From NCBI GenBank assembly GCA_022703255.1, contig JAKLDZ010000001.1, forward strand, positions 1 through 45,798: 45,798 bases of DNA, given 5' to 3'. Numbering within the stretch: the stretch's first letter is position 1; every line of letters begins with the position of its first letter. The DNA comes from Myxococcota bacterium. GTDB taxonomy: Bacteria > Myxococcota_A > Polyangia > Polyangiales > Polyangiaceae. The position numbers and the translations under genes are program-made. The notes under the pieces were generated by a model, which did no database searches, was not told the origin of the DNA, and worked only from the letters and a program-made list of their open reading frames with translations. Shown here piece after piece: positions 691 through 16,645 of the stretch.

Positions 691-810
691 GGGTGGCGGC
701 CGCCACTTTGCCCTGGCGGCCCGCCACTTTCTCAGATCGCAGCCAATTCGTAGGTGGAATTCAACTGCCTGCCGTGTTCCGAACTGCGATCGGGGTGGCG
801 GCCGCCACCC
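691..810. repeat. 120-nt element bounded by perfect 16-bp inverted repeats containing NotI palindromes
   Basis: GGGTGGCGGCCGCCAC (691-706) is the exact reverse complement of GTGGCGGCCGCCACCC (795-810). There is an inner inverted repeat, GATCGCAG (735-742) / CTGCGATC (784-791). A degenerate third copy TGGCGGCCCGCCAC lies at 714-727. Confidence 0.6.
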
Positions 811-936
811 GGTGCGCACGCCAACTGCGCGGAATCGCGTGGCCGCGATGGTGGCACCCGACGTGCACAAGCGTCGCGAGCGCGCCGGCGGTCGGCCGTG
901 TTGGACGATCGCGAGGCTGCGCTCTATTCTCGCGGT
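795..936 (+). repeat. ~140-nt intergenic repeat, copy A (copy B at 5113-5251)
   Basis: Aligns by eye with 5113-5251 over its whole length. The last ~50 nt (GTCGGCCGTGTTGGACG..CGCGAGGCTGCGCTCTATTCTCGC) are nearly identical. Both copies end directly at an ATG. Confidence 0.7.
901..930 (+). promoter_or_regulatory. sigma70-like promoter TTGGAC-N18-TATTCT inside repeat copy A
   Basis: TTGGAC at 901-906, an 18-nt spacer, TATTCT at 925-930. ATG 937 starts 6 nt after the -10 hexamer, which is leaderless geometry. Confidence 0.4.
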
Positions 937-1806
937 ATGGCCGCAGACAAGGACGACAGTGCGATGAGCCAACCCTGGCCCTGCTACCCGGTCAAGCCAC
1001 CGCCGCGCGGAGAGGACCTCCCCTATTCCGACGGTGTGCCCATGGAAAGCGAAATGCACGTCCACCAGATGAACCTGCTGACCGAGTCGCTGCGGGTCGC
1101 CTGGGCAGACCGCGACGACTTCTACGTCGGCGGCAACATGTTCGTGTACTACAGCGAGCTGCAGTCCAAGAAGAACGACTTCCGCGGCCCCGACGTGTTC
1201 GTGGTGCTCGACACCGTCAAGAAGGTGCGGCGCTCGTGGGTGGTCTGGGAAGAAGACGGTCGCACCCCCGACGTGGTGATCGAGCTGACGTCGCCGTCGA
1301 CCGAAGCGGTGGATCGAGGGGAGAAGAAGCGGATCTACGCACGAACCCTCCGGACGGCGGAGTACTACCTGTATGACCCCTACGAGAAGCGACTCGAGGG
1401 CTACCAGCTCGACCTCGGCCGGGGCGAGTACGAGCCGATGACGCCGGACGATCGAGGGTGGTATCGGAGCAAGATGCTCGGACTGTGGCTCGGTGTGCAG
1501 CGCGGCACCTTCCAGGGGCTCGATGAGCTGTGGTTGCGATGGATCGACGACGACGGCCTCGCGCTGCCGAGCGAAGGCGATCGGGCGGCCGCGGAACGAG
1601 CCAAGGCGGCCGAGGAGCGGGCGAGGGCCGACGAACAACGGGCGAGGGCCGACGAACAACGGGCGAGAGCCGATGCGTTCGAGTCCAGGGAGCAGCAGGC
1701 GCAGGAGCGCCTCCGCGTCGCGGCGCGGGCGCTTCTCGCCACCGGCCAGTCCCCCTCCGAGGTCGCGTCGTTGCTCGGAATCAGCGTCGACGAACTCGGC
1801 AAGTAG
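937..1806 (+). CDS. Uma2 family (DUF820) putative restriction-type endonuclease with coiled-coil and HTH-like C-terminal tail
   Basis: Part of ORF 754..1806. Family-typical stretch FYVGGNMFVYY...FRGPDVFVVLD...PDVVIELTSPSTEAVDRGEKKRIYARTLRTAEYYLYDP. ATG 937 is in frame; ATG 964 is an alternative start. Confidence 0.85.
   Translation: MAADKDDSAMSQPWPCYPVKPPPRGEDLPYSDGVPMESEMHVHQMNLLTESLRVAWADRDDFYVGGNMFVYYSELQSKKNDFRGPDVFVVLDTVKKVRRSWVVWEEDGRTPDVVIELTSPSTEAVDRGEKKRIYARTLRTAEYYLYDPYEKRLEGYQLDLGRGEYEPMTPDDRGWYRSKMLGLWLGVQRGTFQGLDELWLRWIDDDGLALPSEGDRAAAERAKAAEERARADEQRARADEQRARADAFESREQQAQERLRVAARALLATGQSPSEVASLLGISVDELGK
1618..1674 (+). repeat. 21-bp in-frame tandem repeat (2 perfect units plus a partial) encoding RARADEQ heptads
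   Basis: CGGGCGAGGGCCGACGAACAA occurs at 1618-1638 and 1639-1659, with a diverged partial unit at 1660-1674, inside the Uma2 C-terminal coiled-coil region. Confidence 0.8.
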
Positions 1807-8211: not shown

Positions 8212-8278
8212 CGCTGCGTCGAGTCTACTCCGTCTCGCCCCTTCCTGTCTCCATCGGTCCGTTCCATCATGCCCGAGG

Positions 8279-9313
8279 ATGCCGCTCCCTCCTGTCGGAA
8301 CCATCACGGTAGAGCTGACGCACCGCTGCCATCGGCGTTGCAGCTTCTGCTACGTCACCGGTCGCACCGCGGCGGATGCCTCGCATGGCGATGAGTTGCC
8401 CGTCGATGTGATCGGCCCGGCCGTGGCGAAGCTCGTCCGCGACACCGGATGCAGGCGCCTTCAGCTCAGCGGAGGCGAGCCGCTGCTTCGTCCCGACCTG
8501 CTCCCCCTCATCGACGCGTTTCGGTCGTCGGGAGCTTCGGTCTCGATCATCACCGACGGCGCGCACCTGGATGCCGAGCTGGCGCGCGAGCTCGCCGACC
8601 GCCACGTGGGCCCGATCCAGCCGACGCTGCTGGCCGGCAGCGCGGCCATTCACGACCGCATGCGAGGAGAGGGCGCCTTCGCCGCCACCTCACGCGCCAT
8701 CGCGATCGGGTCGCGAGCCGGCCTGGAGGTCGTGGTCTGCATGGTGATCACGCGTCTCAACTGGGAGGAGTCGGCCCGGGTCGCCGAGCTCGCCTTCGCG
8801 CTCGGGGCACGAAGGTTCGCGCTGAGCAGGCTCTGCCCGGCGGGCGCTGCGCGCCCGTCCTACGACTCGCTGATGCCCGACGCTGAGCAAGTCCGTCGAG
8901 CGGCGGAGTCCGCTGCGGCGATGTGCCGATCGCTTCGCCTCCCCCTTGCCGCTGCCGTCGCCGTCCCGTCCTGTGTCTGGTCCGATCCCGACAACCCTCC
9001 GCTGTCGGTCGGCGTCTGCTCGATCATGGGACCTCGAACCACGATGACGATCGGTCCCGACGGCACCGTTCGATCCTGCTCGATGAGCGATCACGTGGTG
9101 GGGAGCCTGCTCACGGAGGACAGCGACGTGCTGCGCCAGAGGTTGTGGGACCAGGAGCTCGCGCCCATGCGCGCGGCAGCTCCCGGCCCGTGCGGAGGAT
9201 GCCCGCACTACGCGCGGTGCCTGGGGGGGTGTCGCTTGTCGGCGCGCGCGGTCTTCGGCGATCTGTCCCACGCGGACCCACTCGCTCCCTGCGCGGGCAG
9301 GCCGCAGAAGTAG
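8279..9313 (+). CDS. radical SAM enzyme with C-terminal SPASM domain (peptide/protein maturase type)
   Basis: ATG 8279 within ORF 7172..9313. CX3CX2C cluster in VELTHRCHRRCSFCY. The C-terminal part GPDGTVRSCSMSDHVVGSL...CGGCPHYARCLGGC matches the SPASM CX2CX5CX3C signature. 344 aa. Confidence 0.85.
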   Translation: MPLPPVGTITVELTHRCHRRCSFCYVTGRTAADASHGDELPVDVIGPAVAKLVRDTGCRRLQLSGGEPLLRPDLLPLIDAFRSSGASVSIITDGAHLDAELARELADRHVGPIQPTLLAGSAAIHDRMRGEGAFAATSRAIAIGSRAGLEVVVCMVITRLNWEESARVAELAFALGARRFALSRLCPAGAARPSYDSLMPDAEQVRRAAESAAAMCRSLRLPLAAAVAVPSCVWSDPDNPPLSVGVCSIMGPRTTMTIGPDGTVRSCSMSDHVVGSLLTEDSDVLRQRLWDQELAPMRAAAPGPCGGCPHYARCLGGCRLSARAVFGDLSHADPLAPCAGRPQK

Positions 9314-9358: not shown

Positions 9359-10318
9359 ATGGACGCCATGCGCATCTCCCGATCCGTGATGCTGGGCAGC
9401 TTCGCCGTCTTCGCCGCAGCCGGCCTGACCGGATGCGCTGGGGGCGGCGCTGCAGGTGTTGGGTGCATTGCGCTGGCCGCCGTGGCCTTCGCCCTCGGCT
9501 GCGGAGGCCAGGCGATATCGCAAGAAGGCGACACCGAGGCCGACGCCTCCGATGCGTCGCCCTTGCCCGATTCCAACACGGGCGTCGATGCCGTGACCGA
9601 GCCGGATGCGGCGCCACAGGTTGATGCCGTCCCTGTCGATTCGACGCCACCCGAAGACGCGCAGCCCGACGCGCCGGCGTGCGACGGCACGTGCCCGTCG
9701 GGGATGACGTGCGTGCAGGCCGCCTCGGGCTCGTGGTGCATGCCCGATGCCGATCGCGACGAGCTGATCGACAGCGCGGACAACTGTCCCTACGCGGCGA
9801 ACTCGGGGCAGCAGGATGCGGACAAGGACGGGGTCGGCGACGCGTGCGACGCGTGTTCCGGCCCGAACGACACGACCTCGTGCGGAGTCGAGTGCTGCAA
9901 CGACCCCGACGGTGACGGCATTGCCGGCACGAATGTGTGGGGCTCGGTGAGCTCGGACAAGGACAACTGCCCGTACATCCCGAATCCGGGACAACAGGAC
10001 GGCGACAACGACGGAGTCGGCGACGCCTGCGACCTGTGCCCGACGGTTCCGAACTTCCTATCACCGTGCGGTGACCCCTGTCTGGACTCGGACGGCGACG
10101 GTGTGGCCGACTTCGGCTACTGCGGCCAGGGGGACACGGATACGTGCCAGTTCAATCCGTCGGATCACCTCGGCGACGCGGACAAGGACAACATCGGAGA
10201 CGTGTGCGATCCCGACGGGATCCACCCGCTCGCGATGCGCCTGCGGATCCTGGAGCGTCTGCTGGGCGAGGGGGTGCTCGAGCCAGGGACGGTGGAGCTG
10301 GCAGCGACGACCGCGTGA
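9359..10318 (+). CDS. secreted lipoprotein with thrombospondin type 3 (calcium-binding) repeats
   Basis: Signal peptide with lipobox LTGC, plus a second hydrophobic stretch ending in FALGC. Repeats include [61 protein letters not shown] and [12 protein letters not shown]. It starts 45 nt after the rSAM stop. Confidence 0.85.
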
Positions 10319-10358: not shown

Positions 10359-11966
10359 ATGGTGGCGATGATCCGCCTGATCCTGAACCCGGGACGTCCC
10401 GACGAGCGGACGATCCCGCTGACCGCCGGAACGCATACGATTGGCCGGGCGCCGGAGAACGAGATCGCCATTCTCAACCACAGCCTTTCGCGGCGTCACG
10501 CCCGCATCGGGCGCTCCGGCGACGAGTGGTTCGTGGAGGACCTGGAGAGCAAGAACGGCACGCACGTGGACGGCGCGAGGGTCACGCGTCGTGCGCTGCA
10601 GGGGGGCGAGACGATCAAGTGTGGCGACGTCGTCATGCGAGTCGAGACCGGGGCGACAGCGCCGGCGGTCGCACCCGCACCGGTGGCCGCGCCCACGGTC
10701 GTGCGAAGCATTCACGAGGATCTGACGCGCATGGGGTTGGCGCGGCTGTTGGGCGGCGCCCCCGAGGGTCTGCGCAGCGCCTTGAACCTGCGCCAGGGAA
10801 ACGAGGGGGATCGCGCCCAGGACAAGCTGCGCGTCTTGCTCAAGGTCAGCCAGGCCTTGTCCACACCCGAGCCGATCGACAAGCAGCTCGACAAGATCCT
10901 CGACCTGCTCGTGCAGATCCTCGACGTGGACCGGGCGGCGATCCTGCTGGTGGCGGAAGGCGGGAAGCTGGAGCCGAGAGTCGTGCGGGCGCGGGATCCG
11001 AATGACACCGACGCGACATTCAGCCAGAGCATCGTGGGGTATGTGCGCGACAACAGCGTGGCCGCGTTGTTCTCCGACGCGACCCACGACCCTCGCCTGC
11101 AGGCTGCCCACAGCGTGTTCGGCTTCTCGATCCAGGCGTCGATGTGCGCGCCCCTCAAGCCGCGCGACGAGGTCCTTGGCGTGCTCTATGTGGACAACCG
11201 GACCTCGCCCAATCGCTTCCAGGAGGAGGACCTCGAGTTCCTGAGCGCCTTTGCGAACCAGGCGGCGATTGCCCTCGAGAACTCCACCCTGCTCGAGCGG
11301 CTGGAGCGCGAGGCGGTGCGACGCAACAACCTCCTGCGGTTCTTTCCTCCTTCGACCGCGGCCCGGTTCGCCGACCAGGCCGGCACCTCCCTGGAGCCCA
11401 TCGAGACGGAGGTCACCGCGCTCTTCTCCGACATCAGCGGATTCACCGCCATGAGCACCGCGATGAAGCCCAGGGAGGTCGTCGAGCTGCTCAACCAGTA
11501 CTTCCCGCCGATGGCGGACATCGTGTTCAAGCACGAGGGGACGCTCGAGAAGTACATCGGCGACGCCCTTCTCGCCGTCTGGGGTGCACCGTTCCGTCAC
11601 GAGGAGGATCCCCGGCGGGCCGTGCAGGCGGCGATTGACATGCAACGCGCCCTGTCCGACTTCAATGCACGCCGCGCGACGCAGCCGCCTCTGCGAATCC
11701 ACATCGGCATCAACACCGGTCCCGTGGCCGCGGGCAACATCGGTTCGGCGCACTACATCCAGTACGCCACCATCGGCGATACGACCAACGTCGCGAGCCG
11801 AATCTGCAACGCAGCCGTGGCCGGTGAAATCCTCCTGTCGGACACGACCCTGAAGCGCATCGGCAAGGGGGCATTCCCGACCGAAGCGCATCCCGCGATC
11901 CACGCGAAAGGAAAAGAGGGCACCCTCGTGGTGCATCGCGTGGTGTGGGATACCGAGAGCGAGTAG
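10359..11966 (+). CDS. FHA-GAF-class III adenylate/guanylate cyclase
   Basis: FHA domain: HTIGRAPENEIAILNHSLSRRHARI...FVEDLESKNGTHVDG. GAF domain: LKVSQALS...DRAAILLV...ASMCAPL. Cyclase domain: VTALFSDISGFTAMS, EKYIGDALLAVWGAP, IGINTGPVAAGNIG, IGDTTNVASRI. The Lys in KYIGD suggests ATP. ATG 10368 is an alternative start. Confidence 0.9.
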   Translation: MVAMIRLILNPGRPDERTIPLTAGTHTIGRAPENEIAILNHSLSRRHARIGRSGDEWFVEDLESKNGTHVDGARVTRRALQGGETIKCGDVVMRVETGATAPAVAPAPVAAPTVVRSIHEDLTRMGLARLLGGAPEGLRSALNLRQGNEGDRAQDKLRVLLKVSQALSTPEPIDKQLDKILDLLVQILDVDRAAILLVAEGGKLEPRVVRARDPNDTDATFSQSIVGYVRDNSVAALFSDATHDPRLQAAHSVFGFSIQASMCAPLKPRDEVLGVLYVDNRTSPNRFQEEDLEFLSAFANQAAIALENSTLLERLEREAVRRNNLLRFFPPSTAARFADQAGTSLEPIETEVTALFSDISGFTAMSTAMKPREVVELLNQYFPPMADIVFKHEGTLEKYIGDALLAVWGAPFRHEEDPRRAVQAAIDMQRALSDFNARRATQPPLRIHIGINTGPVAAGNIGSAHYIQYATIGDTTNVASRICNAAVAGEILLSDTTLKRIGKGAFPTEAHPAIHAKGKEGTLVVHRVVWDTESE

Positions 11967-11980
11967 CAGGAGGCGAACCG

Positions 11981-11999
11981 CTGCGCCTTCATTGCGCAG
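11981..11999. terminator. hairpin between convergent cyclase and S8 genes
   Basis: CTGCGC-CTTCATT-GCGCAG, a 6-bp stem, lies 15 nt after the cyclase stop. There is no clear U-tract. Confidence 0.25.
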
Positions 12000-12023
12000 C
12001 TTCCACTGCTCCCTGTCGATCGC

Positions 12024-12803
12024 TCACGCGTCGCGCGACGCGGCCGCTCGTTCGCAAGCGCCCGCGGCATCCCTGAGCAGACTCTTGATCTCGAAGGGGC
12101 GCAGGCCGGGGAATGTCCCCAGGAGCAGCGCGCACATCGCCGATACCGCCGGCGTCGCGAAGCTCGTCCCCGTCTTCGTCGTGTATCCGCCCCCCGGCGC
12201 CGCCACCGGCACGTCCTCGCCGTGGGCCACGAACTCGATGGGTACGCCTGCGCGATACCGGAGCTCGTACGGGGACGCGAATCGCGCGCAATCGACTGCC
12301 ACGCAAGAAGAGAACTCCGCTGGATAGCCATTGTCTGCGAGAGGCATGTTCCGCTTCGACGCCACCACCACCTGCCCTTGCCGGTAGGCGGCGTCGCACA
12401 GGGCCATGAGCGATTGGGAATAGGGTGCAGTCGCCGCGAGGCTCATGTTCACCACCGGACAGCGCCTCGCCAGCGCGACCCGCATCCCCTCGATCAGCGC
12501 GGCGCCCGCGCCGCTCTGCGTGGCCCCCAGCACCCGGACGTCCACGATGCGCGCGCACGGAGCCATTCGCGTCACGATGCTGGCCACGGCCGTCCCATGC
12601 CCGAATCCGTCGTTGTTGTCCCCCACCGGAAGCTCGATCGGGCGCAGCTTGCCTTGCACGCAGTCGATGCGGAATGCCCCCGAGACTCTCCCTCTCAGAT
12701 CGGGGTGCGATGCGTCGACTCCGCTGTCGATCACCGCCACCTCGACCGCACCCAGACCCGTGGTGAGCTCGTCGATTCGGCGTCCCAGCGCTTCGCGCAG
12801 CAT
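12024..12803 (-). CDS. minimal cytoplasmic subtilisin-like (S8) serine protease
   Basis: Catalytic motifs VIDSGVD (Asp), GHGTAVAS (His), VNMSLA (oxyanion Asn) and GTSFATPAVS (Ser). About 259 aa with no signal peptide and no prodomain. The alternative GTG start at 12836 would overlap the upstream GAF gene. Confidence 0.8.
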   Translation of the reverse strand: MLREALGRRIDELTTGLGAVEVAVIDSGVDASHPDLRGRVSGAFRIDCVQGKLRPIELPVGDNNDGFGHGTAVASIVTRMAPCARIVDVRVLGATQSGAGAALIEGMRVALARRCPVVNMSLAATAPYSQSLMALCDAAYRQGQVVVASKRNMPLADNGYPAEFSSCVAVDCARFASPYELRYRAGVPIEFVAHGEDVPVAAPGGGYTTKTGTSFATPAVSAMCALLLGTFPGLRPFEIKSLLRDAAGACERAAASRDA

Positions 12804-12814
12804 GTTTGTCGAGC

Positions 12815-13480
12815 TCACGCCGCGCCGCCCACGCACAAGCCTTCCACCGTCTCCATGAGGTGGGCCACGAGCACCAGCGCGTCAGGGCGCGCCTCCGCGA
12901 TCCGCATGACCGAAGACACGATCGACGCCTCGAGCGGAGGCAAGGCAGAGGCGTCCTGCAGCGTGGTCTCCTCGCCACCGCGTTGCAGCGCGTTGAGCCG
13001 GTGACGCTGCTGCACCACGACCCCGGCCACGGCGGCGAGCTTGCCGTACAGCTCCGCTTCGCGGCTCCCGAACCGCTTGCCCTGCGCGAACGTCACCGCC
13101 GTGATCACCCCCACCACGCTCTCCCCCACCACCATCGGCGCCGCGATGACCGACTGCGGTCCTTCGCTCGCTCCTCGCTCCAACGCCTGCTGTACCTGCG
13201 AGAACGTCGGCGCGCCGAGCTGGACCTCCCGCGTCGCCGCCGCCAGCCCGGTGATCCCCTGTCCCAACGGAACCCGCTGCCCGGCCAGCGCCCGCTCCGA
13301 CGTCTTGCTTCCCACCGTCATCGCGAACACCAGATCCCCGGCCAACTCATCGAGCACCAGCAGCGATCCCTCCTCGGCCCCCACGACCTGGATTCCCAGC
13401 TCGATCAGCAGGCGCAACACGGCCTCTTCCGGACTCTGCGGAGCGATCGAGAGGTAGGTCGAGAGCGCGGTGTTCGTCAT
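12815..13480 (-). CDS. stand-alone GAF domain protein
   Basis: ATG 13480 (MTNTALSTYL) within ORF 12815..13588. GAF-like core EGSLLVLDELAGDLVFAMTVG...PLGQGITGLAAATREV...SVIAAPMVVGESVVGVITAV. Its stop lies 11 nt upstream of the S8 ATG. Confidence 0.8.
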   Translation of the reverse strand: MTNTALSTYLSIAPQSPEEAVLRLLIELGIQVVGAEEGSLLVLDELAGDLVFAMTVGSKTSERALAGQRVPLGQGITGLAAATREVQLGAPTFSQVQQALERGASEGPQSVIAAPMVVGESVVGVITAVTFAQGKRFGSREAELYGKLAAVAGVVVQQRHRLNALQRGGEETTLQDASALPPLEASIVSSVMRIAEARPDALVLVAHLMETVEGLCVGGAA

Positions 13481-13721
13481 GATGAGCCCCTGCTCGTCGC
13501 GGTCCGAACGTGGACCCGGGACGGTGCGCGAAGAGGATAGCCGTCCGGTGCGCGCACGGGTAGCGGTCTGCGCCCGCTCGCTGCGCATCGGATGACACCA
13601 GAGCCGTCGCCGGTCTTCCAGCAGCCGATCCGTCCGGCCCGCCCCGCTGTTCGATCCCCGTGCGATGCGCTATACGCTGCGTGCCGATCGTCGGCTCACT
13701 CCGAAGCCGGAGGCCCGAATC

Positions 13722-15563
13722 ATGCGCGTACCGTTCCGAGACAAGCTCAAGCAAGGCACCGTCGTGTTCGACGGCGGCATGGGAACCATGCTGTACGCGC
13801 GCGGCGTGTACATCAATCGCTCCTTCGAAGAGCTCAACCTCTCGGCGCCTCACGTGGTCAAGCAGGTTCACGAGGAGTACCTGCGGGCCGGCGCCGACGT
13901 CATCGAGACCAACACCTTCGGCGCGGGGACCTTCCGCCTCGAACCCCATGGCCTCGCAGGGAAGATGCGCGAGATCAACCTGGCGGGCGCCAGGATCGCC
14001 CGCGAGGTCGCCGGCGATGACCACTGGGTCGCCGGCGCCGTCGGCCCCCTCGGCGTGCAGATCGAACCCCTCGGACGCCTCGCGTTCGACGAGGCTCGCG
14101 CGGAGTTCCGCGCGCGCATCGAGCCGCTCGTCGAAGGCGGCGTGGACGTGATCATCCTCGAGACGTTCCTGCACCTTCCCGAGATCGAGCAGGCGATCCT
14201 GGCCGCGCGCGACGTCTGCGACCTGCCGGTCATCGCCCAGGTCGTGATCAGCTCGGGGACGCACCTGGCCCTGGGCACGCCGATCGAAGAGGCGACGCGC
14301 AAGCTCGACGAGTTCGCGCCCGACGTGATCGGGCTCAACTGCGCGGTGGGACCCAAGGAGATGCTCGACGCGCTCGAGCTGATGCTCCCGCTGACGGAGC
14401 GTCCGATCTCCCTGATGCCGAACGCCGGCGCCCCGCGCAACGTCGAAGGGAGGATGATCTACCTCACCTCGCCGGAGTACCTCGCCGAGTACGCCAAGCG
14501 CTACATCCAGACCGGCGCCCGCATCGTCGGCGGATGCTGCGGCACCACGCCCGATCACATCCGCGCCGTGCGCAAGGCCGTCTCCGCCCTCGAACCCCCC
14601 GCGCGAAAAACCGTCGTCCAGAGCCCCGGCGCGGAACCGCCTGCCTCGATCCGCCCGATTGCATTGCCGGAAAAGTCCCGGCTCGCCTGCCGTCTGGTCG
14701 ATGGACGCTTCGTCACGATGTGCGAGCTGGTGTCGCCGCGCGGCATCTCCGCGGAGCGCGAGGTCGGGATGGCGCGCCAGCTCTTCCACCACGGCGTGGA
14801 CGCGATCAACATCCCCGACGGTCCCCGGGCCAGCTCCCGCATGTCCGCGCTCGCCCTCGCCGTGCTCATCCAGCAGCGGGTCGGCATCGAGGTGCTCCTG
14901 CACTACACCTGCCGCGATCGCAATGTCATCGGCATGCAGAGCGACCTGCTCGGCGCCTGGGCACTGGGCATCCGCAACATCCTCGCCGTCACAGGCGATC
15001 CTCCCAAGCTCGGCAACTACCCCGACGCGACCGCCGTCTTCGACGTCGACTCGATCGGTCTGACCAACCTCCTCGCGCGGCTGAATCGCGGCTTGGATCT
15101 CGGCGGAAACCCGATCGGCGCGCCGACCGGCTTCCATGTCGGTGTGGGCGCCAACCCGGGTGCGCTCAACCTCGACGAGGAGCTGCGACGGCTCGACTGG
15201 AAGGTCGAGGCCGGAGCCGAGTTCATCATCACCCAGCCGGTGTTCGACCTCGACCTCTTCGATCGCTTCTACAAGCGCGTCGAGCACGTGAAGATCCCGC
15301 TCATCGCGGGGATCTGGCCGCTGGTGTCCCTGCGCAATGCCGAGTTCCTCAACAACGAAGTGCCGGGCGCCCACGTGCCGGAGCCCGTCATGGATCGTCT
15401 GCGCGCCGCACGAAGCCCCGAGGAGTCCCTCTCCATCGGCGCAGCCATTGCCCGCGAGATGCTCGACCAGCTCCGAACGCGCACCCGTGGCGTGCAGATT
15501 GCCGTCCCCTTCGGCAAGGTCGGCATGGTGCTCGACATCCTCGGCGGCGTGCTGCGCGAATAG
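13722..15563 (+). CDS. yitJ: bifunctional homocysteine S-methyltransferase / 5,10-methylenetetrahydrofolate reductase
   Basis: N-terminal S-methyltransferase domain (FDGGMGTMLY, ETNTFGA, GGCCGTTPDHI) fused to an MTHFR domain (CELVSPRG, HYTCRDRN, AVTGDPPK, FIITQPVFD). GGAGG lies 8 nt before ATG 13722. Confidence 0.9.
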   Translation: MRVPFRDKLKQGTVVFDGGMGTMLYARGVYINRSFEELNLSAPHVVKQVHEEYLRAGADVIETNTFGAGTFRLEPHGLAGKMREINLAGARIAREVAGDDHWVAGAVGPLGVQIEPLGRLAFDEARAEFRARIEPLVEGGVDVIILETFLHLPEIEQAILAARDVCDLPVIAQVVISSGTHLALGTPIEEATRKLDEFAPDVIGLNCAVGPKEMLDALELMLPLTERPISLMPNAGAPRNVEGRMIYLTSPEYLAEYAKRYIQTGARIVGGCCGTTPDHIRAVRKAVSALEPPARKTVVQSPGAEPPASIRPIALPEKSRLACRLVDGRFVTMCELVSPRGISAEREVGMARQLFHHGVDAINIPDGPRASSRMSALALAVLIQQRVGIEVLLHYTCRDRNVIGMQSDLLGAWALGIRNILAVTGDPPKLGNYPDATAVFDVDSIGLTNLLARLNRGLDLGGNPIGAPTGFHVGVGANPGALNLDEELRRLDWKVEAGAEFIITQPVFDLDLFDRFYKRVEHVKIPLIAGIWPLVSLRNAEFLNNEVPGAHVPEPVMDRLRAARSPEESLSIGAAIAREMLDQLRTRTRGVQIAVPFGKVGMVLDILGGVLRE

Positions 15564-15598: not shown

Positions 15599-16645
15599 AT
15601 GCGCGTTGTCTTCTCCGTGCGCCCTCCTTCACCGATCACTGCGCTCGCTTGCGCTCTCGCGTGCCTCGTCGCATCCGCCGTCGCTGCGGCCCATCCCGAC
15701 GATCCCCTCGTGCAGCAGACGACCCCCAGCGCGCCGCTGGTCATCGCGACCGATGCTCCACCCCCTCCGCCTCCTCCGCCTCCTCCGCCTCCTCCTGCGC
15801 GGCCCAAGGTGCGCGCAACGCCACCTCCCGAGCGTCCGACGGAGATCCGCCCGGTCGGCGCGTGGTCCGTCTCTGTACTCGCTCCGGTGATCACCGGAGC
15901 CAAGGCAGGCCCCGTCTCCTTCACCTGGCTCGGTGTCTCGTTCGTGTCGTACACCGGTCAGATGTGGTTCCTCCCGCAACCCGGACGGTCCGGATTCACG
16001 GCGCGGGCCGGCGGGCGCCTCGCCATGGCCGAGGCGATGCCCCTGGGCGTGTACGCCAGCGAGCTCGCGGGCGGCTCGGGGTACCGATGGAACCTCGGTG
16101 GGGCGCACCACTTTGCGCTCGTCGGCGCGATCGAGGGGAGCGGTGGGCTCGCCATGCAGCACCAGTTCGCGCTGCTGCGCTTCCCCGAAGCGGAGGCTGC
16201 CTGGCAGCACCACTCGCGCACTCACCTCGTCAGCATCGGAGGTCTTGCCGGCCTGTCGATGGTCGGGCGCTACGCCATCGGCAAGAAGCTCGTGGTCGGG
16301 GCCGAAGAGCAGCATGAGAAGGATGCGCTCTCGAGCACGCACTACTTCAAGCCATACCTCGGCGCTCGCGCCGACCTTGTGGTGAACCATCTGATGCTTT
16401 CGATGGCAGCGCGGCGCACGTATCTGGGAGACGCGGAGCCGGGAGGGCCGTTGGACCACCTGCTGGGGCACCTGTGTTACGCGCGCAGGTCCGACTTCAA
16501 GGCAGCCCCCTGGGGAGGGTGTCTGGTGGGCGAACTGTATCGAGGCGAGCTCGAGCGGATCGCCCCGGTGGAAGGGCCGGTTCGCGACGCTTGGTCGTAT
16601 CGGATCGGCTTGAATCTGATGCTGGCGCAGGTGCTGCTGAAGTAG
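15599..16645 (+). CDS. secreted hypothetical protein with poly-proline tract
   Basis: Signal-peptide-like ITALACALACLVASAVAAA, a run of 13 Pro, then a ~270-aa Gly- and aromatic-rich domain. I recognise no family. Confidence 0.65.
   Translation: MRVVFSVRPPSPITALACALACLVASAVAAAHPDDPLVQQTTPSAPLVIATDAPPPPPPPPPPPPPARPKVRATPPPERPTEIRPVGAWSVSVLAPVITGAKAGPVSFTWLGVSFVSYTGQMWFLPQPGRSGFTARAGGRLAMAEAMPLGVYASELAGGSGYRWNLGGAHHFALVGAIEGSGGLAMQHQFALLRFPEAEAAWQHHSRTHLVSIGGLAGLSMVGRYAIGKKLVVGAEEQHEKDALSSTHYFKPYLGARADLVVNHLMLSMAARRTYLGDAEPGGPLDHLLGHLCYARRSDFKAAPWGGCLVGELYRGELERIAPVEGPVRDAWSYRIGLNLMLAQVLLK
15758..15796 (+). repeat. in-frame CCN simple repeat encoding 13 consecutive prolines
   Basis: CCACCCCCTCCGCCTCCTCCGCCTCCTCCGCCTCCTCCT, containing three CCGCCTCCT units. 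Confidence 0.85.

Follow-up and report, generated by a model that had tools for sequence, protein, structure and literature searches.

What does a subtilisin-like protease do in the cytoplasm, next to a GAF-domain protein and a nucleotide cyclase? This question is raised by three genes in a 45,798-nt stretch of DNA from a Myxococcota bacterium (contig JAKLDZ010000001.1, G+C content about 68%; hereafter the window), in which the gene for a cyclase with FHA and GAF domains converges on a two-gene unit encoding a GAF partner protein and a compact protease of family S8. On balance, we favor the reading that the GAF-S8 pair acts, by analogy, as a QhpE-like leader peptidase under GAF control, within systems for peptide maturation and export that are wired to cyclic-nucleotide signaling. 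Because the pair in other genomes sits with exporters, leader-bearing small open reading frames (ORFs) and cyclic-nucleotide genes, it appears to be a regulated peptide-processing protease and not a phage-defense weapon.

An earlier sequence-only reading of the window had described this arrangement, and most of it was found as stated. The cyclase with FHA and GAF input ends at 11966 (Pfam, ORF reading), the stop codon of the GAF gene (TGA, 12817-12815) is separated by 11 nt from the S8 ATG at 12803, and the 259-aa protease, as borne out by Pfam and the family alignment, has an intact triad and neither signal peptide nor prodomain. Two values needed correction, as the cyclase and S8 stop codons lie 57 nt apart rather than 58, and the GAF protein is 221 rather than 222 aa long. 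An in-frame GTG at 12836, located after a GGAAGG stretch, would add 11 residues to the protease, giving a 270-aa protein whose gene overlaps the GAF gene by 22 nt. A GTG-type start is used by the nearest homologues (P0002 and L170, the latter also with a 22-nt overlap). No terminator-like site was found within the 57-nt spacer, the sole site detected being inside the cyclase gene.

The protease matches Pfam Peptidase_S8 (PF00082) with E=3e-26 and 92.7 bits, against a cut-off of 21.8. Residues D26, H69 and S214 of the triad and the oxyanion residue N152 (numbering from the ATG) are invariant in a 16-sequence family alignment. An AlphaFold2 model of the protease alone shows a subtilisin fold (predicted local distance difference test, pLDDT, 78; predicted template modeling score, pTM, 0.84), with residues 150-200 poorly defined, and a Foldseek search with this model returned subtilisin BPN' as the top match (E about 1e-11). 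Judged by the D-H-S order of the triad, the oxyanion Asn and the predicted fold, the protein belongs to family S8. The catalytic Asp lies at residue 26 or 37 depending on the start chosen, and with either start there is no hydrophobic signal segment and no space for an I9 prodomain. A truncated secreted protease was ruled out. At E<1e-5 the search gave 810 homologues, of which the top 120 all fall between 247 and 288 aa in length. Since its relatives share a length of about 250 aa, the protein is not truncated, and its earlier description as a genuine minimal cytoplasmic subtilase stands. Two of its three best NCBIfam matches are secretion- or maturation-linked proteases, namely mycosin (TIGR03921, 99.5 bits, cut-off 278.75) and QhpE (NF049966, 91.6 bits, cut-off 165), the QhpE match, which ranks second after mycosin, spanning positions 2-211 of a 219-position profile. 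As both scores fall below the curated cut-offs, the protease is placed in neither family.

We followed the pair from both of its members. A search seeded with the S8 protein, in one genome per GTDB species, yielded 17 compact-S8 loci (L001-L017), 15 of which carry a homologous GAF gene directly upstream; the exceptions are L013, which is near a contig end, and L017, which is without a GAF gene. The second search was seeded with an alignment of core-clade GAF proteins and covered JGI metagenomes, in which stop-to-stop segments were searched with hidden Markov models (HMMs). Of the 77 loci with downstream room, 74 have a compact S8 gene directly downstream, in the same orientation and spaced by -9 to +60 nt. 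The sole clear exception is a single group (L098, 1298..1960; L102; L103), and in L098 a 203-aa ORF with no Pfam match occupies the place of the S8 gene downstream of the GAF gene. The pairing is near-obligate and far beyond chance, which supports the earlier proposal that GAF and S8 form a conserved unit. An exhaustive GAF profile search returned 226 cluster representatives (50% identity) at E<=1e-30. About 100 of the 150 representatives listed are full-length, at about 200-230 aa, and the remainder are mostly multi-GAF giants that score by summation. Carriers of the pair belong to more than 10 phyla in total, including Myxococcota, Acidobacteriota, Alphaproteobacteria, Lentisphaerota, Eremiobacterota, Actinomycetota, Chloroflexota, Dormibacterota, Verrucomicrobiota, Planctomycetota and Desulfobacterota-like taxa. 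We found no paper describing a GAF-S8 pair. A 2-kb activated-sludge metagenome contig (UPTA01067458; L090, 1..2075) encodes a GAF protein 100% identical to that of the window, followed by the same S8 protease, which suggests activated sludge as the habitat of the window's bacterium.

A census of gene neighborhoods compared 40 groups with 53 control loci from other S8 families. The groups were dereplicated at 85% GAF identity and had 6 kb or more of flanking sequence, and neighbors were counted up to 6 kb to either side of the GAF gene. Neighbor identities from our own HMM census and from Pfam-annotated contigs were in agreement. An ATP-binding cassette (ABC) exporter is present in 27 of the 40 groups and 4 of the 53 controls, and any exporter, either ABC or major facilitator superfamily (MFS), in 31/40 and 4/53, respectively. 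The ABC exporter is mostly encoded on the same strand and abuts the pair, in the orders ABC-GAF-S8, GAF-S8-ABC and ABC-cNMP-GAF-S8, where cNMP denotes a cyclic-nucleotide-binding protein. Actinomycetota and Chloroflexota have an MFS_3 exporter that carries a fused cNMP_binding domain. Radical S-adenosylmethionine (SAM)/SPASM maturases, of the PapB, QhpD and B12-radical SAM types, occur in 11 groups and in none of the controls. Class III cyclases were counted in 17/40 groups (2/53 controls), cNMP_binding proteins in 11/40 (1/53), and one or the other in 23/40 (3/53; p=4e-8). These CAP-type cNMP receptors take the form of Crp-like regulators, stand-alone domains or domains fused to MFS exporters. 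A Crp-like regulator adjoins the GAF gene in L011 as well as in L135, and is two genes off in L099.

The same neighborhoods contain small ORFs that resemble precursor peptides. The commonest family, of 75-82 aa, immediately precedes ABC-GAF-S8, as a single ORF or as two or three in tandem, and combines a leader, M..K.GTKI..EAK.LD..K.G...(E/D)VEGQ, with a CxxCG...CGxCG core of about 40 aa. The leader end EVxGQ is common to at least four further core classes, whose leaders and cores are otherwise unrelated. In L091, L093 and L100, ...SEV(A/V/S)GQ precedes (D)GETC(V/I)G(V/G)S(V/L)(A/G)PVTV(S/T)YCK; in L148, L126 and L155, ...ADVEGQ precedes a Cys-rich core of 28 aa, with a radical SAM gene alongside. 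The remaining examples are ...IEVSGQ before RSYGWENK (L161), ...PEVVGQ before WGDHGWER (L171, with a B12-radical SAM gene alongside) and ...GEVEGQ before ACWGRIV... (L086). The strict motif [DE]V[EVAS]GQ occurs in same-strand small ORFs of 15/41 groups and 0/53 controls (p=7e-7). Neither NCBIfam nor Pfam has a family for these precursor-like ORFs, the 75-82-aa family giving only sub-threshold zinc-ribbon matches. One junction motif before many cores, accompanied by exporters and by PapB, QhpD and B12-radical SAM maturases, is read as the signature of a dedicated leader peptidase. By its gene content, the GAF-S8 family has the makeup of a leader peptidase and export module of the kind that serves ribosomally synthesized peptides with post-translational modifications (RiPPs); the window itself does not.

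The GAF partner matches Pfam GAF_2 (E=4e-9) and has no NCBIfam model in a search of those profiles. The best 120 of its 367 homologues are 202-229 aa long. In its AlphaFold2 model (pLDDT 87.7), a GAF domain (residues ~1-135) is followed by a three-helix C-terminal extension (139-217). The best sequence matches of the GAF profile in the PDB are cNMP-binding GAF domains, including CyaB2 (1ykd, 1.8e-8), PDE6C, Lcd1 with cAMP and PDE10A. A CHASE2 sensor is fused to a full-length GAF partner in two relatives, P0287 and P0309 (L171, 1473..3476), and both fusions are followed by a compact S8 gene and an ORF of 76-78 aa; in other GAF-S8 loci, CHASE2 is fused to a cyclase instead. In L171, the S8 gene is followed by the 76-aa EVVGQ precursor-like ORF, the B12-radical SAM gene and an ABC exporter, and this locus contains no cyclase and no CAP-type receptor. 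The fusions therefore place the GAF partner downstream of a sensor and upstream of the protease. Such a position, read from domain order, would fit a nucleotide relay, although it does not prove nucleotide binding. The GAF partner of L048 (4505..5890) carries a GNAT acetyltransferase domain as an N-terminal fusion, and in L115 (8024..9940) the gene immediately upstream of the one for the GAF partner encodes an acetyl-CoA hydrolase-GNAT protein. We considered whether the C-terminal (V/I)E(G/A)L motif of the GAF partner mimics EVEGQ as a pseudosubstrate and dropped the idea, since the motif falls within a helix predicted to be amphipathic and lacks conservation across the family.

The cyclase of the window has FHA (27-88), GAF (174-306) and Guanylate_cyc (350-521) domains, all above Pfam gathering scores, with 98.9 bits for Guanylate_cyc (PF00211). 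The metal-binding, Asn and Arg motifs can be read in its translation as FSDISGFT, YIGDA and TNVASR, and these features mark it as a class III nucleotide cyclase. Its FHA-GAF architecture is shared with L170. Other loci carry cyclases with different sensors, namely TPR-S (L006, L135, L147 group), RyR-TPR-S (L007, L139, L145), CHASE2 (L099, L115) and HAMP (L088), as well as a cyclase-kinase (L131), a DZR-cyclase-AAA_16 (DZR-STAND) protein in L010 and homologous cyclase proteins of about 1150-1400 aa in L015 and L048. In L006, a TPR-S cyclase is convergent on the S8 stop codon, as in the window, with an unrelated sensor. The earlier proposal of a GAF-controlled protease with cyclase input is supported in part. 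The cyclic-nucleotide link recurs independently in many phyla, with varied cyclases and with CAP-type receptors, whereas the 57-nt adjacency is itself local. Because the cyclase of L170 is about 5.7 kb from its S8 gene, and L081 and L083, both from Myxococcota, have no cyclase nearby, the juxtaposition is lineage-specific, and the functional link rests on cross-phylum recurrence rather than on the single adjacency in the window. The window cyclase is a candidate signal source for the pair.

Together, these observations are consistent with a conserved processing protease of the cytoplasm that has two components. The comparison shows the gene content, the conserved pairing, the enrichments and the leader motif; the cut site, a physical complex of GAF and S8 proteins and gating by a ligand are inferred. 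The S8 subunit, if it works as QhpE does, would remove the leader of small precursor peptides or proteins at the (D/E)-V-x-G-Q junction, before their export through the ABC or MFS exporter; in some lineages, radical SAM modification of the precursor would come before leader removal. The GAF subunit, translationally coupled and almost never absent, would be a regulatory or recognition subunit that relays a signal to the protease. This signal may be a cyclic nucleotide from the linked sensor-cyclase or, in the fused variants, may come directly from the CHASE2 membrane sensor, while CAP-type cNMP receptors in the same operons would add control of transcription and export. The window would represent a reduced version, with the cyclase as likely input and the substrate presumably encoded elsewhere, there being no exporter or precursor within its 45.8 kb. 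In a bolder form of the proposal, which we put forward only tentatively, a cyclic nucleotide made by a sensor-cyclase would bind the GAF subunit and thereby activate, post-translationally, the final cytoplasmic step by which peptides of a large, previously unrecognized superfamily with EVxGQ leaders are released; peptide-signal or bacteriocin secretion in more than 10 phyla would in that case come under direct cNMP control.

Several observations weigh against the favored reading of a GAF-regulated leader peptidase. HMM and motif scans found no ABC, MFS, cNMP_binding or EVxGQ ORF anywhere in the window, and its closest relatives (L081-L083, L130, L170) likewise have no exporter, cNMP_binding protein or EVxGQ precursor, so the function of the Myxococcota subgroup could differ; L001, a Polyangiaceae genome, has the order GAF-S8-ABC-cNMP. 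The separation of cyclase and S8 gene in L170 amounts to four genes. Of the NKFDE signature that marks the cNMP-binding GAF subgroup (PDE2/5/6/10/11, CyaB1/2), core-clade GAF partners retain only F-x3-D, with N-K retained in L007 and L008, and the Foldseek matches of the GAF partner do not separate the ligand classes of GAF domains. Furthermore, cyclases are abundant in some carrier phyla, and the control loci of the census were drawn from other taxa.

Of the alternatives, the one that fares best, though we consider it unlikely, makes the GAF protein a ligand-independent chaperone or inhibitor acting in trans in place of the absent prodomain, comparable to PopD for PopC. Cyclic nucleotides would then act only on transcription or export through CAP-type proteins, and the window cyclase would not act directly on the protease. 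A prodomain, which subtilases normally require, is lacking in this S8 family. The translational coupling of the pair, the poorly defined segment of the protease when modeled alone and the distant cyclase of L170 would all suit such a role; the CAP-type receptors present in many loci could account for the cyclases, and PopC/PopD provides a precedent (PMC6434023). However, the solved structures closest in sequence to the GAF partner are cNMP-binding domains, and its direct fusion to CHASE2 points to a signal receiver rather than a passive chaperone. In addition, cyclases are found in more neighborhoods than CAP-type receptors (17 against only 11 of 40), and QhpE functions without such a partner (PMC7876137).

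A regulated leader peptidase also has to be weighed against a signaling protease that cleaves a cytoplasmic regulator, zinc-ribbon or anti-sigma-like, to switch expression, with no maturation of an exported peptide. A 260-aa protein resembling extracytoplasmic function (ECF) sigma factors is encoded directly after S8 in five groups (L083, L088, L124, L130, L150), the commonest precursor-like core resembles a zinc ribbon, and there are Myxococcota loci without exporters. We nevertheless judge this explanation to be quite improbable, as exporters are the most consistent neighbors of the pair and mostly abut it on the same strand, and as a RiPP pattern is formed by the tandem small ORFs, the one leader motif placed before several unrelated short cores rich in Cys or Trp, and the radical SAM maturases.

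Least probable is an anti-phage, abortive-infection system of the Pycsar, CBASS (cyclic-oligonucleotide-based anti-phage signaling system) or IetAS kind whose effector would be a protease activated by cyclic nucleotides, for which one could cite the matches of the cyclase to PycC profiles, the match of S8 to the PADLOC "subtilase" profile and, weakly, to IetS, the TPR-S sensor domains of partner cyclases and a Uma2 endonuclease-like gene about 9 kb away, but the PycC matches are expected from any class III cyclase and the PADLOC matches are generic, no IetA-type ATPase and no cNMP_binding-transmembrane or TIR effector is present, the window neighbors are housekeeping genes (epimerase, MetH-like/methylenetetrahydrofolate reductase fusion, amidohydrolase, MacB/FtsX, Ser/Thr kinase, CCA-adding enzyme), and the family is broad and stable in distribution, accompanied by exporters, leader-bearing precursors and radical SAM genes rather than defense genes. 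An IMG/VR search returned no relatives of the pair; on this result and on the housekeeping surroundings, a phage or defense-island origin was rejected, and the anti-phage, CBASS-like framing of the sequence-only reading is not supported.

Table 1. Coordinates of the three-gene arrangement and of neighboring features in the window.
Feature	Position	Strand	Basis
FHA-GAF-class III nucleotide cyclase, 535 aa	10359..11966	+	Pfam FHA, GAF, Guanylate_cyc
Spacer between the convergent cyclase and S8 stop codons, 57 nt	11967..12023		Sequence reading
Compact S8 subtilase, 259 aa (ATG 12803) or 270 aa (GTG 12836)	12024..12803 or 12024..12836	-	Pfam Peptidase_S8
GAF partner, 221 aa, first gene of the two-gene unit	12815..13480	-	Pfam GAF_2
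Radical SAM/SPASM enzyme, best matches PqqE/GeoRSP (context only)	~8270..9313	+	Pfam, NCBIfam
Cys/Asp-rich TSP_3-repeat lipoprotein, LTGC lipobox (context only)	9359..10318	+	Pfam
632-aa ORF, fused homocysteine S-methyltransferase and methylenetetrahydrofolate reductase domains	13665..15563	divergent from GAF gene	
348-aa ORF, hydrophobic signal-like N-terminal stretch, run of 14 prolines, no Pfam match	15599..16645		
Uma2-family putative restriction endonuclease, sole defense-flavored gene seen in the window	754..1806		

Upstream of the cyclase, the radical SAM and TSP_3 genes are separated by 45 nt, and the TSP_3 and cyclase genes by 40 nt. The same order is found in L170, the closest relative with context, whose S8 protease is 85% identical to that of the window and which carries the same radical SAM-TSP_3-cyclase block; the place of these two genes in the GAF-S8 system is only contextual. 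QhpD-type enzymes make Cys-Asp/Glu thioethers, and by analogy the radical SAM enzyme might modify the Cys/Asp-rich TSP_3 protein. In L170 (2739..8454), the four intervening genes are missing from the window. One of them, for a 380-aa HEAT-like protein, overlaps the S8 stop codon, and another encodes a 454-aa protein that carries a zinc ribbon at its N-terminus; the remaining two products, of 462 and 472 aa, are uncharacterized.

Additional genes were observed next to the pair in other loci. The region of the ECF-sigma-like gene spans 9392..11241 in L088 and 8875..10842 in L083, and the best match of its product, below cut-off, is a type III-E CRISPR-associated RpoE-like sigma factor. This gene is followed by one for a protein of 336-352 aa without known identity in four of the five groups, the protein not being detected in L124. 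In L147 (11591..13816), a TonB-dependent receptor gene (Pfam Plug and TonB_dep_Rec) lies directly after S8 on the same strand, and a 752-aa ORF occupies the equivalent position in L154 (11501..13759). The position of the L147 receptor is reminiscent of the TonB-dependent transporter Oar, which is needed for secretion of the subtilase PopC.

If a GAF-regulated leader peptidase is the correct reading, the leader peptidases of RiPPs or small proteins would gain a new class, a compact S8 protease with an obligate GAF partner. The cyclases, CAP-type receptors and CHASE2 fusions point to signal-dependent, post-translational control of peptide maturation, which to our knowledge is poorly documented in bacteria. 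The EVxGQ junction and the GAF-S8 pair would also provide a simple genome-mining handle on at least five unexplored precursor classes, including zinc-ribbon-like, short Cys-rich and 8-residue Trp-containing cores, from mostly uncultured bacteria of soil, sludge and sediment. Myxobacteria, actinobacteria and Chloroflexota have many orphan class III cyclases, to which the pair would add a testable output.

Compared with known systems, the window shares with Pycsar a class III cyclase beside a potential effector, but it encodes neither of the effector types named above. With IetAS it shares a signal-less S8 protease, but IetS is about 750 aa long and no IetA gene is adjacent; PADLOC IetS matches are partial, at 29.7 bits or less, and the NCBIfam IteS match reaches 24.9 bits against a cut-off of 900. 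In Myxococcus xanthus, the signal-less subtilase PopC forms a complex with PopD, which inhibits the secretion of PopC in cells that are not starving and is broken down upon a ppGpp alarmone signal (PMC6434023). Compared by description only, the likeness lies in a myxobacterial signal-less subtilase with a partner and nucleotide-signal release; PopC differs in its size of 50.8 kDa, in an extra N-terminal region and in being secreted itself.

HetC is a peptide exporter with its own peptidase, controlled by an N-terminal cNMP-binding domain (PMC10986499). In peptidase-containing ABC transporters (PCATs), HetC above all, as would be the case here, a leader peptidase, an ABC exporter and a nucleotide-binding regulatory domain govern peptide release. 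PCATs, however, have a C39 cysteine peptidase as a fused domain and leaders of the double-glycine type, whereas the GAF-S8 family has a separate S8 protease and GAF partner, and unlike HetC its loci carry the cNMP-binding domain as a separate protein or as an MFS fusion.

The closest parallel is QhpE, a subtilisin-like cytoplasmic protease without prodomain that cuts a 28-residue leader off QhpC, once the radical SAM enzyme QhpD has crosslinked QhpC and prior to its export by QhpF, an efflux ABC transporter (PMC7876137). The qhp genes are qhpABCDEFGR, with no GAF partner listed (PMC7876137). The window protease falls short of the QhpE profile cut-off, no QhpA, B, C or G genes accompany it, and its neighbors (cyclase, MetH-like fusion, TSP_3 protein and radical SAM enzyme) do not form a qhp operon with an ABC exporter. 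Both proteases are very small S8 enzymes with neither signal peptide nor prodomain, and the proposed role, cytoplasmic leader removal from a small Cys-containing polypeptide, would be the same; many GAF-S8 loci also have an efflux-type ABC partner and radical SAM/SPASM maturases of the thioether type. QhpE would thus be the best functional analogue of the S8 protease, though not a member of the same family, and the GAF-S8 family is set apart from it by an obligate GAF partner, the EVxGQ junction, many unrelated cores and links to cyclases and cNMP receptors.

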